From: a virus
Length of the DNA: 64,000 nucleotides
Reading direction: 5' to 3' (one strand)
Virus record (IMG/VR): IMGVR_UViG_3300025102_007089
Coordinates: 1-64,000 of that record
In this document: one piece after another, positions 17,335-22,786 of the stretch
Layout: the number at the start of each line of letters is the position of its first letter
Position numbering within the stretch: the stretch's first letter is position 1
The notes under the pieces: model-generated
Database searches by the model: none
The model's input: the letters and a program-made list of their open reading frames with translations, nothing else
What the model was told of the DNA's origin: nothing
Made by a program: the position numbers and the translations under genes

Positions 17335-19902
17335 ATGTCTTATAGAAATGTAGTATATGATGGCCGGAGAGGCTGCGTTAATTTGTTTACTTGGGATGGT
17401 GAAGGTAAGCGAGTTATGCATGAGTGTTCTTTCGAGCCTTATCTATACGTTGAAGATAATAGAGGGGATAAGACGTCAATATTTGGAACTAAAGTTAAAA
17501 AGAAGTCATTTCACAATGCTTATAATAGATCTAGATTTGTAAATGATGCAGGTATAAAACGAGTTTTTGAAAACTGTCCTCCTGCACAGCAATTTTTGCT
17601 AGATATGTATTGGCAGCAAAATGAAAATGAAGAATTTTCGAGTAAGCCTCTTAAGTATTGTTTTTTAGATATTGAGACTTATAGCGTTGATCATTTTCCT
17701 GATATTGAAAATCCTACTCATGTTGTTAATGTTATAACTTGTTGGGATAATTTTAGTAAGAAGTTTCATACGTTTGGTATCAAGCCGTATACTGGTAAAG
17801 GAAGAGACGATCTTAATTATGTTTATTGTAAAGATGAAAGAGAGATGTTTATTAAGTTTCTTGAATATCTTGAAAATGACTTCCCGGATATCTTAAGTGG
17901 TTGGAACTCCGAATTTTTCGATATACCTTATATTGTAAATAGAATGGAAAGGGTGTTAGGTCAAGAATTTGTAAATAGACTCTCCCCGCTTAAAAGAGTT
18001 CATTTTAGAGTTATTAAAGGTAAGTTCGGTAGAGAACAAAAACGCTATTATATTGATGGTGTTGCATGTTTAGACTACCTCGATGTTTATAAACGATTTT
18101 GTTTGAAGTTAAGAGAGTCGTATAAGTTAGATGCTATTGGTCAAGTAGAACTAGGGGATAGAAAAATTGATTACGGAGGGGTAAGCTTAGCTACTCTATC
18201 AGATGAAGATTGGAATACCTTTATTGATTATAATATTCAAGACGTTAATTTGTTAGTACGTCTAGAAGAAAAATTACAGTATATACCTTTACTAAGAACC
18301 CTATCTTACGTAGGGTTAACTACTCTTGAAGGTGCAATGGGTACTATTCAAGTTATTAATGGTGCTCTAACTATTAGAGCTCGTAAGCGTAATGAGATTA
18401 TTTCGACGTTTATTCGTAATGCTGATACTGGTAAAAATCCTGGAGCGTATGTAGCTGAACCTAAAAGAGGGTTTAAGAAAAATGTAGTCTCTTTTGATGC
18501 TAACTCTCTATACCCGAATGTGATGATCTCTTTGAATACTTCACCGGAAACTAAAGTGGGTAAAATAGAGAGAACCACTGATAAAAATGTAACGATACAG
18601 CATGTTACCGGTAAATTATTCGAACTTAGTAAACCTGACTTTGTAAAGTTTCTAAAAAATGAGCAATGCTCTATATCTAAAGCTGGATTTCTATTCAGTC
18701 AAAAGAAGAAGGGTATCATACCTGAATTCTTGGAATACTATTATAATAAACGGGTTGAGATAAAGAAAAAACTATTTAAGACTAAGCAAAAATTTAAGAA
18801 AGAACCTAATAATTTAGATCTTAAATATGAAGTTGAGAGGCTTAATACTTCGCAGATGGTTATTAAGATTCTTATTAACTCTTGTTATGGATATATGGGC
18901 AATAAAAATGCCCCTATTGGTGATGATGATATTGCATCTTCAGTAACGTTAACCGGTCAAGCTGTAATTAAGTATTCGAATGAATTAATTAAAGAGTTTC
19001 TTAAGAAAGAAGTAGCAGATATATCTGATAGAGAGCTTGAAGAATGTGTTATTTATAATGATACTGATTCGTCATATATTTCGATCTCTCCTCTAGTAGA
19101 TAAAGGTATTGTAAAATTTTGGGATAATGATATGGTCCACGAGGAGACGTATAGCAAGATTCAAGAGATTGAAGACTATCTAAATGAGGGTATAAGTAAA
19201 TGGGCTGAAAAAGCTATTCTTACTAATAATAGTAGGTTTGTATTTAAGCGTGAATGTATAGCTGATATCGGTGTTTTCTTACAGAAAAAACGTTATGTTA
19301 TGCATATACTTGACGATGAGGGTATTAAGGAAAATAAATTTAAGTATACTGGTGTTGAAGTAGTTCGAACTACTATGCCTAATGCTATTAAACCTTATGC
19401 TAAAAAGATAATTGAAACTATGCTTTCAACTCAGTCTTTGAAAGAAACTAATAGTATACTTAATGAAACTTATGAGGTCTTTAAGAGCTTATCACCGGAA
19501 GAACTTGCTTTTGTAATGGGTGTAAAGGGATACGAAAAATACGCTTCGCAGAGTAATGAGTTTAATACTTGTAAGGGTATGCCTATACATGTAAAATCTG
19601 CTTATTACTATAATGAGCTTCTAGATAAATTAAATACTGGTAACAAATATGAATCGATTAGTACGGGAGATAAAGTCCGTTATATGTATGTTGAGCAGCC
19701 TAATAAGTTTGGTCTGGATAGTATTGGCTTTAAATATGAGTATCCTGAGGAGTTTAATAGTATCTTTAAACCGGATTATGATAAGATGTTTCAAAAAATC
19801 TTATTTCAAGCTATCGAACGTTTTTACGAAAATGTAAATTGGACTATTCGTAAGCCTTCAGAAAATGTTCAAGTTGAACTCTTTGACCTATTTGCTAAAT
19901 AA
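17335..19902 (+). CDS. gp43: Family B DNA polymerase gp43
   Basis: DIET exonuclease motif, FDANSLYP, KILINSCYG, YNDTDS, KKRY. Confidence 0.96.
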   Translation: MSYRNVVYDGRRGCVNLFTWDGEGKRVMHECSFEPYLYVEDNRGDKTSIFGTKVKKKSFHNAYNRSRFVNDAGIKRVFENCPPAQQFLLDMYWQQNENEEFSSKPLKYCFLDIETYSVDHFPDIENPTHVVNVITCWDNFSKKFHTFGIKPYTGKGRDDLNYVYCKDEREMFIKFLEYLENDFPDILSGWNSEFFDIPYIVNRMERVLGQEFVNRLSPLKRVHFRVIKGKFGREQKRYYIDGVACLDYLDVYKRFCLKLRESYKLDAIGQVELGDRKIDYGGVSLATLSDEDWNTFIDYNIQDVNLLVRLEEKLQYIPLLRTLSYVGLTTLEGAMGTIQVINGALTIRARKRNEIISTFIRNADTGKNPGAYVAEPKRGFKKNVVSFDANSLYPNVMISLNTSPETKVGKIERTTDKNVTIQHVTGKLFELSKPDFVKFLKNEQCSISKAGFLFSQKKKGIIPEFLEYYYNKRVEIKKKLFKTKQKFKKEPNNLDLKYEVERLNTSQMVIKILINSCYGYMGNKNAPIGDDDIASSVTLTGQAVIKYSNELIKEFLKKEVADISDRELEECVIYNDTDSSYISISPLVDKGIVKFWDNDMVHEETYSKIQEIEDYLNEGISKWAEKAILTNNSRFVFKRECIADIGVFLQKKRYVMHILDDEGIKENKFKYTGVEVVRTTMPNAIKPYAKKIIETMLSTQSLKETNSILNETYEVFKSLSPEELAFVMGVKGYEKYASQSNEFNTCKGMPIHVKSAYYYNELLDKLNTGNKYESISTGDKVRYMYVEQPNKFGLDSIGFKYEYPEEFNSIFKPDYDKMFQKILFQAIERFYENVNWTIRKPSENVQVELFDLFAK

Positions 19903-20253: not shown

Positions 20254-20604
20254 ATGTCAGACATTAAAACTATCTCAGATCACATCGGTCGTACTGTTGT
20301 AGGCGTTGTAACAAAAGAAGATGACGAGACTATTACTATTAATAATCCTGTTATTATTCACGTGCAACCTAACCCGCAAAACGGTCAACTCCAAGTTCAG
20401 TCCTTTCCATACTTGTTTATGGAATTTATTAAAGGAGACAAAACACAAAATAATTGGACTTTTAATAAATCAGTTATCTCTATCTCTGATGTAGAGTTAG
20501 ATGATAGAATTGTACAGCAATACGAGAATATTAATTCTCCACAAGCTGCTGAAGGGGAAGCTGCTGAAGAAGATCCAGAAGTAATTAAGTTGTTCGATGA
20601 TTAA
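20254..20604 (+). CDS. Hypothetical protein (possible Sm-like beta fold)
   Basis: ORF with its own promoter and terminator. Confidence 0.65.
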   Translation: MSDIKTISDHIGRTVVGVVTKEDDETITINNPVIIHVQPNPQNGQLQVQSFPYLFMEFIKGDKTQNNWTFNKSVISISDVELDDRIVQQYENINSPQAAEGEAAEEDPEVIKLFDD

Positions 20605-20627
20605 AATCGACGATAAGCAAAAATAGT

Positions 20628-20662
20628 AAAAACTCCCCTTCGGAAGTTGGGGAGTTTTTTTT
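20628..20662 (+). terminator. Rho-independent terminator
   Basis: AAAAACTCCCC / GGGGAGTTTTT stem followed by a T-run. Confidence 0.85.
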
Positions 20663-20681
20663 GGTTTTTTTAACACTATAC

Positions 20682-20689
20682 TATAAATA
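20682..20689 (+). promoter_or_regulatory. T4-type late promoter TATAAATA for hsp20
   Basis: Exact gp55 consensus 8 nt before the ATG. Confidence 0.7.
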
Positions 20690-20697
20690 CTATTACT

Positions 20698-21108
20698 ATG
20701 AAACTAACTAAATATACACATAACCCAATTGCTGAAATCGAAAGAGCCTTTGATGGCTTCTTTAACCTAACACCTGTCTTTCATCAATTGGAAGAAGTTT
20801 ACAAGACAGGTGATCAAGTTCGTTTTTCGCAAGATGAAAACACGCTAAGCGTGCAAATTGACCTACCAGGTGTTGCAAAAGATGATCTAGATCTTTCTAC
20901 AGATACAGATCAACGTGAAGTTTATATAAAAGCTAAGCGAAAAATTAAAACTAATGACGGAGAAAAAGAACAGACTTACAATAGATCATTCTCCGTAGGT
21001 AGAGAGTTTGATTTGAATAAAATTAAGTTTACTTATATTAACGGGGTACTAGAGGTAGATGTACCAAGAAGAAAAAAGGAAGAATATATAAAAACATATA
21101 CAGTCTAA
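20698..21108 (+). CDS. hsp20: Small heat-shock protein Hsp20
   Basis: IDLPGVAKDDL, YNRSF, YINGVLEVDVPR alpha-crystallin pattern. Confidence 0.88.
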   Translation: MKLTKYTHNPIAEIERAFDGFFNLTPVFHQLEEVYKTGDQVRFSQDENTLSVQIDLPGVAKDDLDLSTDTDQREVYIKAKRKIKTNDGEKEQTYNRSFSVGREFDLNKIKFTYINGVLEVDVPRRKKEEYIKTYTV

Positions 21109-21116
21109 AATTTAAA

Positions 21117-21308
21117 TGGGCCTAGCTAGCCCAAACCCGGGTGTGCCTGAATAAACATTTTAAGCAAGAGTGTTAAAGGGACTGCTGACTTACATGGAGG
21201 GTCGACTGACTATTAAATGTATAATGCGGGGTACAAGTAGGTAAAAAGATGAAACTGCATCTTGCCTAACTGAAAGTTGGAGGTAACCAGAAAATCCTCT
21301 CACCCACC
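21117..21308 (+). ncRNA. Candidate structured ncRNA of unknown family
   Basis: GC-enriched interval without a long ORF; multiple nested stems closed by GGGTG(21139)/CACCC(21301); terminator directly downstream. Confidence 0.6.
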
Positions 21309-21310
21309 TT

Positions 21311-21336
21311 AAAGCCCCCGAAAGGGGGCTTTTTTT
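21311..21336 (+). terminator. Rho-independent terminator
   Basis: AAAGCCCCC-GAAA-GGGGGCTTT followed by a T-run. Confidence 0.92.
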
Positions 21337-21350
21337 ATCTAAATAATTAG

Positions 21351-21668
21351 GTGAATATAATTGTTATAGCTGATTTAACTACTAATGAAGGGCTATACTT
21401 TAGATATCTATCAATGATGGTTCAAGCTGATGTTGTAGTGGAAACAAGCAAACCTTTAATTGATTATCATTATAGAAATCTTAAAAGCCAAGGTCTCTAT
21501 GACTGTGTGTATGATATGGTTACACCAGAATGTGGTGTAGAGGGTATTCGAATTGATACTGAATTGAATTACCCTATGACAATACAAACTGATACAATTA
21601 AAGGGGCTAATGTTTTGCATCTACTTAAACAAATAGAACAGTTGAAAAGTATAAAGAACTCTATATAA
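21351..21668 (+). CDS. Hypothetical protein
   Basis: GTG start 5 nt after CTAAATA. Confidence 0.6.
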   Translation: MNIIVIADLTTNEGLYFRYLSMMVQADVVVETSKPLIDYHYRNLKSQGLYDCVYDMVTPECGVEGIRIDTELNYPMTIQTDTIKGANVLHLLKQIEQLKSIKNSI

Positions 21669-21669
21669 T
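21642..21669 (+). promoter_or_regulatory. Sigma70-like promoter for uvsX (representative of a recurring class)
   Basis: TTGAAA-N16-TATAAT, 7 nt before the ATG; same layout at 689, 11994, 17301, 20219, 26474, 29627 and 57880(-). Confidence 0.75.
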
Positions 21670-21676
21670 TGTTTAT

Positions 21677-22786
21677 ATGGATAAAGATGTTTTAAAAGCT
21701 TTAGATGATATTGATAAGGTTAATCCTTTTGCTACGTATCTAAGTGATAGTACTTTAAGTAGAGTTGGTACTTGGATTGATACCGGATCCTACGTATTAA
21801 ATGCTATTATTTCTGGATCAATTCACGGTGGTATACCTAAAGGTCGTGTAACTATGCTAGCAGGAGAATCTATGACGGGTAAGTCGTTATTCGTTCAAAA
21901 GATTCTAGCTAAAGCTCAAGAAGAAGGTTTAATTCCAGTAATTTTTGATACTGAAAATGCTATCGACCCTGAAGGTGCTGAAAGACTTGGCTTAGATATT
22001 AGTAAAGTAAAGTATGTACCTTGTACTAGTATCGAGCAAGCTAGAAACTCTCTATATAAGTTCCTTATGTCTGTTAAAGAAAAGGGTCTTGAAGGTAAAT
22101 TTATTGTAGCTATTGATTCTTTAGCTAACTTGCAATCTGAATTGGAACTTTCTCGTATGAGCAAAGATAGTACTTCATCAGATATGGGTACTAAAGCTCG
22201 AGCTATGAAAACATTAATGCAAACTTGTACTAATTTAGGTTCAGTAACTCAAACAACTATTCTTTGTACTAATCATGTTTATGATGATCCTACTGCTCTC
22301 TTTCCTTCTATTGAAAAGAATATGCCTGGTGGAAAGTCATGTATCTATTTACCTTCTGTAACTGTTCAACTAGCTCGTAAGCCTATTAAAGATGACGGAG
22401 GTAAAACTGTAGATGGCGAACTAGCTGTAGGTCAGAAAAAGTACTCAGGTATTATTATTAGAGCCTTAACTCGTAAGAATAGATTTATTAAGCAATATTT
22501 AGAAGGTGAAATGTACTTATCATTTTCTTCTGGTCTAGATAGGTATTATGGATTAGTTGATTTAGCTGTTGGTGTTGGTGCTGTAATTCAAACTGGAGCT
22601 ACTTATCAGCTTGAAGATGGTACTAAGTTAGGCTATTATAAGAATTGGAGAAAAGATACTAAGCTTTGGGAAGAGACTATCTTACCTAAAGTAGAAGAAC
22701 GTATTAAAAATGAATGGTCTTATAGTAATAACGAAGATGAAATCCCCGAAGAAGTAGAAGATGAAGAAATTAGTATTGACGCTTAG
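21677..22786 (+). CDS. uvsX: RecA-like recombinase UvsX
   Basis: IDTGSYVLNAIISGS..GGIP, GESMTGKS, FDTENA, IDSL, NHVY, GG. Confidence 0.92.
   Translation: MDKDVLKALDDIDKVNPFATYLSDSTLSRVGTWIDTGSYVLNAIISGSIHGGIPKGRVTMLAGESMTGKSLFVQKILAKAQEEGLIPVIFDTENAIDPEGAERLGLDISKVKYVPCTSIEQARNSLYKFLMSVKEKGLEGKFIVAIDSLANLQSELELSRMSKDSTSSDMGTKARAMKTLMQTCTNLGSVTQTTILCTNHVYDDPTALFPSIEKNMPGGKSCIYLPSVTVQLARKPIKDDGGKTVDGELAVGQKKYSGIIIRALTRKNRFIKQYLEGEMYLSFSSGLDRYYGLVDLAVGVGAVIQTGATYQLEDGTKLGYYKNWRKDTKLWEETILPKVEERIKNEWSYSNNEDEIPEEVEDEEISIDA

Follow-up and report, generated by a model that had tools for sequence, protein, structure and literature searches.

A diverged manA-family RNA between hsp20 and a terminator in an uncultured marine T4-like phage

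The DNA analysed here, hereafter the window, is the first 64 kb (64,000 nucleotides, nt) of an 80.6-kb IMG/VR virus record (IMGVR_UViG_3300025102_007089). Between the gene for a small heat-shock protein (hsp20) and an intrinsic terminator it contains a stretch, positions 21117-21336, that an initial annotation made from the sequence alone had described as an unidentified multibranch RNA and possibly a new RNA motif. A structured RNA is indeed present, since its helices are kept by compensatory changes over six diverged marine phage groups, but a full-length match to the Rfam family RF01745 removes the novelty: judged by sequence comparison, the RNA at 21117-21308 belongs to the manA family, as a diverged member not yet catalogued, and is not a new kind of RNA. 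The source is an uncultured marine T4-like phage, whose record holds a T4-type DNA polymerase, UvsX and hsp20; no cultured phage has a DNA polymerase or UvsX more than 33% identical to its own, and its UvsX shares 33% identity with that of cyanophages. We think it probable that this manA member forms the tail of a late hsp20 transcription unit and works as a free-standing RNA, possibly one that assembles with itself.

Assignment to the manA family

Infernal searches against Rfam aligned RF01745 over model positions 1-192 of 192 to positions 21116-21310 with a score of 43.3 bits, and E-values of 7.7e-10 in a 600-nt search, 8.2e-8 for the whole window with all 4227 families and 2.4e-11 for the genome. 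The gathering score of this family is 55.2 bits, and at gathering thresholds Rfam gave no match in the whole window. RF01745 scores are graded across the cut-off, from 120-197 bits for canonical manA RNAs, which were found with the core pattern, to 35-60 bits for the related groups described below, and all 13 close relatives tested scored 39-47 bits. The well-aligned parts are the 5' hairpin, the GGGUG-UG-CC-UGAAUAA segment, the P2 hairpin with its UAAAGG closure, the GA linker and GGAGGUAACCAGAAAAUCCUCUCACCCACCUU, and the alignment of the core region to the manA consensus has high posterior probability. The conserved manA core could be traced throughout: P1, the UG with a 2-bp P2 and NGAAUAA, P2a, UAA(A/G)G, and P5 with GGUA..AG.AAUCC against the 3' strand of P1. 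In the same Rfam alignment, 21182-21229 is occupied mainly by gaps and insertions. Other sub-threshold Rfam matches (Phe leader, SpF41 and others) are all due to the terminator hairpin and were set aside.

The description of the interval as GC-enriched and free of long open reading frames (ORFs) is borne out. The + strand of 21117-21336 holds no ORF of 30 amino acids (aa) or more, the sole ORF in the interval being one of 37 aa on the - strand, and the flagged stretch is the GC-richest 200-nt bin nearby (0.415, compared with about 0.30-0.37). ARAGORN called no transfer RNA (tRNA) and no transfer-messenger RNA (tmRNA) in the whole 64-kb window. A blastn search of cultured phages (50,697 records) with the RNA matched the terminator alone, in one Synechococcus phage, and a 6-kb blastn search against cultured phages recovered a short DNA-polymerase stretch only.

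Relatives, covariation and selection

Searches of IMG/VR with UvsX and Hsp20 yielded 155 loci, and the same RNA occupies the same place in about 35 contigs at 88-100% identity, which together with the window form group V1 (RF01745 scores of 39-47 bits). Analysed alone, 23 close relatives gave zero compensatory changes, being too alike. Covariation therefore required diverged groups, of which five were gathered by a pattern over the core and the P5 loop, and by the manA model: V2 (L159 / L324; 47 bits), V3 (L169 and L361-L364; 35-42 bits), V4 (L360; 56.8 bits, over the gathering score), V5 (L358 and L359; 59.5 and 56.7 bits, likewise over it) and V6 (L365 and L366; 37 bits). Pattern matches in L321/L342, L330, L335, L336, L352 and L354 were dropped as apparent coding or unrelated sequence, and those of them that were searched had no manA match.

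Nineteen matches from V1-V6, comprising 18 distinct sequences, were aligned to our own model, R1. Over the 18 sequences of the six groups, 94.8% of pairing cells hold a pair, compared with 36-52% when the partners are slid, and both sides have changed in 34 of 46 pairs, values reached by 0 of 500 shuffles; the alignment was fitted to the R1 model and is to that extent biased towards the structure. Exchange of both strands can be followed in the raw sequences, in which P1 appears as GGGUG/CACCC, GUGAG/CUCAC, GGAAGG/CCUUCC, GCUCCG/CGGAGC or AUAUA/UGUAU. The single sequence folds mildly better than its shuffles (z = -2.2), and the support for the structure comes from sequence comparison, not from folding energy.

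The RNA is on average 95.3% identical to its relatives, whereas their hsp20 genes are 83% identical and the third codon positions 58%, and its core is invariant in 23 relatives. By this comparison the RNA is evidently under strong purifying selection, and since it is so much more alike than hsp20, its loops and junctions appear to be constrained as well as its stems.

Helix anatomy

The features of the locus and the helices of the RNA are listed in Table 1. The P0 loop holds the self-complementary sequence UAGCUA. P1 is formed by 21139-43 paired with 21301-05, and P2 by CC at 21146-47 paired with GG at 21178-79 (pair types AU 8, CG 8, GC 2). An ACUG loop and the UGCC that follows it lie at 21252-21266, within P4. 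At the position of P4, V2 has GAGU/GGCUC and UAAC/GUUA, which supports the rebuilt outer helix of P4. Most of the stems listed in the initial annotation covary, namely TGGGC/GCCCA, GGGTG/CACCC, ACATTTT/AGAGTGT, CTGC..TACAT/ATGTA..GCGG, TAGG..AGATG/CATCT..CCTA and GGAGG/CCTCT, whereas two found no support: GTGCCT/GGGTAC competes with the conserved 2-bp P2 of the family, and AACT-GAA-AGTT is left with 3 bp in relatives.

Table 1. Features of the hsp20-uvsX locus and helices of the manA-family RNA, in window coordinates
Feature	Position	Strand	Detail or evidence
DNA polymerase	17335-19902
Two small ORFs	after DNA polymerase, before the terminator at about 20630-20663
Intrinsic terminator of upstream transcription unit	20630..20663	+	ACTCCCC..GGGGAGT and T-run
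TATAAATA, T4-type late-promoter motif	20682..20689	+	8 nt 5' of hsp20 start codon
hsp20, small heat-shock protein, 136 aa	20698..21108	+	Pfam PF00011 HSP20, E 1.4e-13
manA-family RNA, from P0 hairpin to P1 3' strand and ACC	21117..21308	+	RF01745 match, own model R1, covariation
P0 hairpin, TGGGC-CTAGCTA-GCCCA	21117..21133	+	5/5 pairs changed on both sides
P1 5' strand GGGTG, then core TG-CC-TGAATAA	21139..21154	+	aligned to manA consensus GGGaGUGaCUGAAUAA
P2a hairpin, ACATTTT-AAGCA-AGAGTGT, then TAAAGG closing the 2-bp P2	21155..21179	+	covariation
P3, one long irregular hairpin: CTGC/GCGG, TACAT/ATGTA, GGTC/GACT	21182..21229	+	covariation
P4: TAGG/CCTA, AGATG/CATCT, apical loop AAACTG; UGCC after inner hairpin	21238..21268	+	covariation
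P5 hairpin, GGAGG-TAACCAGAAAAT-CCTCT, then directly P1 3' strand CACCC	21279..21305	+	manA consensus GugGGUAuacAguAAUCCcaCCuCCC, covariation
Intrinsic terminator, AAAGCCCCC-GAAA-GGGGGCTTT and T-run	21311..21336	+	9 pairs, 6 G-C
orfX, 105 aa, GTG start	21351..21668	+
Sigma70-type promoter-like site, TTGAAA-16-TATAAT	21642..21669	+	11/12 matches; overlaps orfX end, just 5' of uvsX
uvsX/RecA-like recombinase	21677..22786	+	Pfam RecA, E 1.7e-18
queC	from 22761

Transcriptional context

From the arrangement of the locus, a late one-gene unit that has the RNA as its tail is the simplest interpretation. P0 lies 8 nt beyond the hsp20 stop codon. An (A/T)ATAAATA motif is kept 8-9 nt before the hsp20 ATG in all relatives shown, whereas the DNA further upstream is unrelated among them; this late-promoter motif is not enriched in the window overall, so the evidence for it lies in its position and conservation and not in its count. 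The slot before hsp20 is variable, with a tRNA gene (GGGTGGCTGTTAACCACTAGGTCGTTGGTTCGAACCCAACCACCGGAGCCA) in some relatives (L096:2907-3000), while the NATAAATA box is constant. From the hsp20 stop codon to P0 neither NATAAATA nor a sigma70 box is found in any relative, and the A/T-rich run before P0 (ATTTAAATG, ATTTATATG, TTGTTATACG) contains no ATAAATA, so the RNA appears to have no late promoter of its own. The initial annotation had placed a strong terminator after the RNA and proposed co-transcription with hsp20; the terminator is real, and with a late promoter before the pair, no promoter motif between them and the terminator behind, co-transcription is the most likely arrangement. The hairpin that closes the preceding unit is kept in the closest relatives, and a terminator scan lists the same hairpin on the - strand.

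Four arrangements of the hsp20-uvsX interval were encountered: the RNA with orfX (15-17 loci), the RNA only (13 loci), orfX only (3 loci) and neither (10 loci). A terminator follows hsp20 in every sequence read, in all four arrangements, and TTGAA(A)-16-TATAAT lies between this terminator and uvsX wherever uvsX is the next gene, including relatives without orfX and relatives without both. Whether orfX, for which no Pfam family was matched, is present does not depend on the RNA, and an ATAAATA-like box stands before orfX in relatives. At the syntenic position in V3a, an RNA of this kind comes after a different ORF and is followed in turn by a terminator, by either a promoter-like box or a further ORF, and by uvsX; throughout V1-V3 each RNA trails an ORF and precedes a terminator. 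One relative (L117:2030-2733) carries an extra insertion of ~660 nt, located between orfX and the module of RNA and terminator, with a hsp20-uvsX gap of 1235 nt compared with about 575.

RNA libraries and the P0 loop

A small fraction of the sequence words of 20600-21700 is present in sixteen marine RNA libraries. Contigs from four marine metatranscriptome studies cover 21122-21300, 21134-21284, 21145-21299 and 21123-21304, and three of these four are identical to the window; they attest the presence of the stretch in RNA libraries and give a weak hint of a discrete species. That contigs of the four RNA libraries leave hsp20, the terminator and orfX uncovered was considered and rejected as evidence of a discrete RNA. 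In one contig, the 10 loose letters that stand ahead of 21122 match the reverse complement of 21288-21297, which looks like a fold-back artefact of complementary DNA synthesis.

Self-complementary tetranucleotides occur in the P0 loops of several groups, AGCU in V1, V4 and V5 and GAUC in V2, V6 and some canonical copies, and these two palindromes are two compensatory swaps apart.

The manA family at large

Canonical manA RNAs mostly stand at the start of a transcript. A promoter of their own, TTGAC-N16-19-TAnnnT, was found in 26 of 45 distinct upstream regions, ending 18-28 nt before the core, just before P0. The -35 box, TTGACA, often lies in the loop of the terminator of the preceding gene (L170-L249; for example GGAGGGGTTGACACCCTCCTTTTTTTATGCAATAAT), a terminator-promoter fusion in which one 45-nt element closes one unit and opens the manA transcript. 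The genes that canonical manA precedes include gp32, transaldolase (talC), phosphomannomutase (PMM), hsp20 and small ORFs. At 5 of 20 loci tRNA genes lie 0-140 nt from canonical manA on the same strand. Family members were seen within or beside tRNA clusters in L310, L317, L318, L305 and L290, in L317 with no spacer, and in V6 (L365) a tRNA-like sequence, GCGGGTGTAGCTCAATTGGCAGAG, stands about 80 nt after the RNA.

Linkage to hsp20 recurs: 20 of 80 core-motif loci have an hsp20 gene on the same strand no more than 2.2 kb away (upstream in 11, downstream in 9), and V3b and V5 also adjoin hsp20. Of the five canonical loci in which an upstream hsp20 lies closest to the RNA, the four that are readable show the order hsp20, terminator, promoter, manA and ORF; the order in the window, by contrast, is hsp20, RNA, terminator and promoter.

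A conserved hairpin, (A)GACCUAAGAUGCAAC..(variable)..GGGCAGAUGGUC(U) with a U-run, occurs 25-30 nt after the manA 3' end in L292, L294, L295, L300, L302, L307 and L290, and also in L237. Unlike an ordinary terminator it is conserved in its loop-proximal sequence, and it has no Rfam match at gathering thresholds; it could represent an uncatalogued motif or else a terminator of a specialised type. A glutamine riboswitch (RF01739, 37.7 bits; L300:312-360) precedes one canonical manA on the same strand at a distance of 226 nt.

Mode of action and alternative explanations

The reading that we favour, and regard as probable, is a diverged manA member that forms the tail of a late hsp20 unit and acts as a free-standing RNA, possibly a self-assembling one. 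Judging from the anatomy of the locus, the RNA would be synthesised at a late stage of infection, forming the 3' tail of a one-gene unit composed of a NATAAATA late promoter, hsp20, the RNA and the terminator, and would not control orfX or uvsX. By homology with manA it would act as a free-standing folded RNA, and it may form closed homo-oligomers by loop-loop contacts, as canonical manA does in vitro; its remodelled peripheral helices and self-complementary P0 loop would then set the assembly interfaces. A constant core combined with a swapped periphery and with P0 palindromes fits self-assembly in the family, and to suppose that the window RNA may do the same would be a reasonable extension. 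Action through neighbouring genes is unlikely, because the same fold stands at the start of transcripts in canonical copies, at the end of one here and beside tRNA genes elsewhere, and this varied wiring argues for a free-standing RNA and against a cis-regulatory job.

The position of the RNA, 8 nt after the hsp20 stop codon and inside the same promoter-to-terminator unit, would also suit a cis-acting element of the 3' untranslated region whose compact fold, alone or with a bound factor, sets the stability or translation of late hsp20 mRNA, for instance by blocking 3'-to-5' decay or by sensing temperature, with no role as a free RNA. The linkage to hsp20 in 20 of 80 manA loci, and in V3b and V5, points the same way, but it is found on either side of hsp20, the V3a RNA trails an unrelated ORF, and ten relatives have hsp20 and its terminator with no RNA. 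The terminator hairpin, moreover, already shields the 3' end, and such an element would leave unexplained the canonical copies that have their own transcripts or lie among tRNA genes; we consider it unlikely. Less likely still is a riboswitch-type sensor in which a ligand bound at the junction controls the terminator at 21311-21336 and hence read-through into orfX and uvsX. manA was rated cis-regulatory and a probable riboswitch when it was described (Weinberg et al. 2010, PMC2864571), the RNA is complex, with conserved junction nucleotides and a terminator directly 3' of it, and RNA-bearing relatives have their own type of terminator stem. P1 and P5, however, neither share sequence with the terminator nor compete with it for sequence: P1 and the terminator are present together in the minimum-energy fold and also in the centroid fold, and pairing of the CACCCACC strand with the GCCCCC or GGGGGC arms in an anti-terminator reaches, by inspection, at most 3 contiguous pairs. 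The A/U spacer between RNA and terminator varies freely between 2 and 9 nt, and the stem between GCCCCC, GCCCC and GCCUCC without a linked change in the RNA. In addition, the terminator stands at the same place in RNA-less relatives, uvsX has a promoter-like box after it, in relatives orfX has an ATAAATA-like box before it, the RNA and orfX vary in presence independently of each other, and the cages that canonical manA forms in vitro are unlike known aptamers.

The initial annotation had also suggested a tRNA-like decoy, in which P5 stacked on P1 with a 3' ACC would mimic the acceptor and T arm for RNase P or the CCA-adding enzyme. A 5-bp P5 does run straight into a 5-bp P1 followed by ACC, and in 5 of 20 loci tRNA genes abut canonical manA with spacings of 0-50 nt, while a tRNA-like sequence comes after the V6 RNA. 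ARAGORN, however, finds 0 genes in the window, the Rfam tRNA and tmRNA models give no match at E up to 10, and the P5 loop has 12 nt in place of a 7-nt T-loop. Because the tail after P1 is AUC, AUU, AAG or UCU in other groups and most canonical copies, ACC is not a family feature, and the decoy is very improbable. The tail position, the terminator in RNA-less relatives and the promoter-like site of uvsX together make both the terminator riboswitch and the decoy unlikely.

Several observations weigh against the late, free-standing and possibly self-assembling manA member that we favour. The window RNA scores below the RF01745 gathering score, and over P3 and P4 its Rfam alignment is of low posterior probability and includes non-canonical pairs. 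Contigs from RNA libraries could hold DNA, and the RNA is the most conserved and most easily assembled stretch. Terminator stems differ between RNA-bearing and RNA-less relatives, and the RNA and terminator could be one module. The P0 loops of most canonical copies are GACG, which is non-palindromic. Complementarity between the P4 and P5 loops is mixed, with CUGU/ACAG in canonical manA, CUG/CAG (3 bp) in V1, ACUU/AAGU in V5 and, by eye, CUGAU/AUCAG in V6, and no such pair in V2 or V4; a conserved P4-P5 kissing pair was accordingly rejected as too weakly supported to claim. The evidence for manA assembly, finally, comes from canonical copies in vitro, in a preprint, and the interface helices are those that are remodelled here.

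A bolder proposal is that these phages make a late self-assembling RNA particle (a ring, decamer or cage) that works with the small heat-shock protein, that the present subfamily, with its palindromic P0 loop and rebuilt P3 and P4, builds a quaternary architecture unlike that of canonical manA, and that the orientation-independent hsp20 linkage reflects a shared late function and not cis-regulation. We hold this to be doubtful; if true, the shared late function might be, for example, the sequestering or scaffolding of a host or phage component.

manA is among the larger orphan RNAs known from ocean phages; for sixteen years it was classed as a probable riboswitch, and a preprint of 2026 reports that it forms capsid-like cages in vitro. 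The family extends well beyond what the Rfam model captures, with at least four groups under the RF01745 cut-off, and manA is therefore under-counted in marine viromes. The hsp20 linkage and predicted late expression at this locus offer a handle on the role of RNA assembly in the infected cell, and the natural variants with swapped peripheral helices provide test cases for how interfaces set the geometry of assembly.

Comparison with known systems

manA was described from 195 sequences, almost all of them marine, with ibpA chaperones among its neighbour genes (Weinberg et al. 2010, PMC2864571), and S-CREM1 has a canonical copy (PMC9964418). The window RNA has in common with manA its occurrence in marine T4-like phages and a length of ~190 nt, the 5' hairpin P0 and the 5-bp closing helix P1. 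Both have a UG-NC-NGAAUAA junction, a P2 hairpin with UAA(A/G)G closure and a GA linker, a P4 with an ACUG apical loop (ACUGU in canonical manA) and then UGCC, and a P5 in which GGUA..AG.AAUCC runs into the 3' strand of P1. The recurrent hsp20 (ibpA) linkage is also common to the two.

The differences lie in the periphery and in the wiring. In canonical manA, P3 is branched into two inner hairpins and carries the conserved segments CAGGUGGUGCUG and AGAAYCGA as well as a putative pseudoknot, whereas P3 of the window RNA is a single irregular hairpin. The outer helix of P4 has 7 bp in canonical manA and is rebuilt here as TAGG/CCTA, and the linker between P4 and P5 is one base in the former and 10 nt in the latter. 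The P0 loop carries the palindrome UAGCUA in place of the GACG of most canonical copies. Whereas canonical manA mostly starts a transcript, the window RNA has no promoter of its own and lies in the hsp20 tail before a terminator.

Five manA RNAs have been resolved by cryo-electron microscopy as octamers, decamers or a 60-subunit T=1 cage formed in vitro (Ren et al. 2026 preprint, bioRxiv 10.64898/2026.07.01.735769). These assemblies, for which the deposited models include PDB 23NP, 23NR and 24QD, are built from pentamers joined through kissing loops between molecules and through a GNRA-receptor contact, and the RNAs that form them, in vitro only, combine a conserved core fold with differing peripheral helices (bioRxiv 10.64898/2026.07.01.735769).

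The wcaG RNA (RF01761), PhotoRC-II and the glutamine riboswitch (RF01739) inhabit the same phage world and the same intergenic niches as the window RNA, and none of their models matches the stretch at E up to 10. A further point of comparison is offered by the RNAs of the phage T4 tRNA region (species 1 and 2, also rnaC and rnaD), which are stable, structured, of unknown function and co-transcribed with other genes. Species 1 and 2 belong to a tRNA region, whereas the window RNA follows a protein gene in a window with no tRNA genes; it is canonical manA, often found within tRNA clusters, that resembles the T4 stable RNAs in setting.

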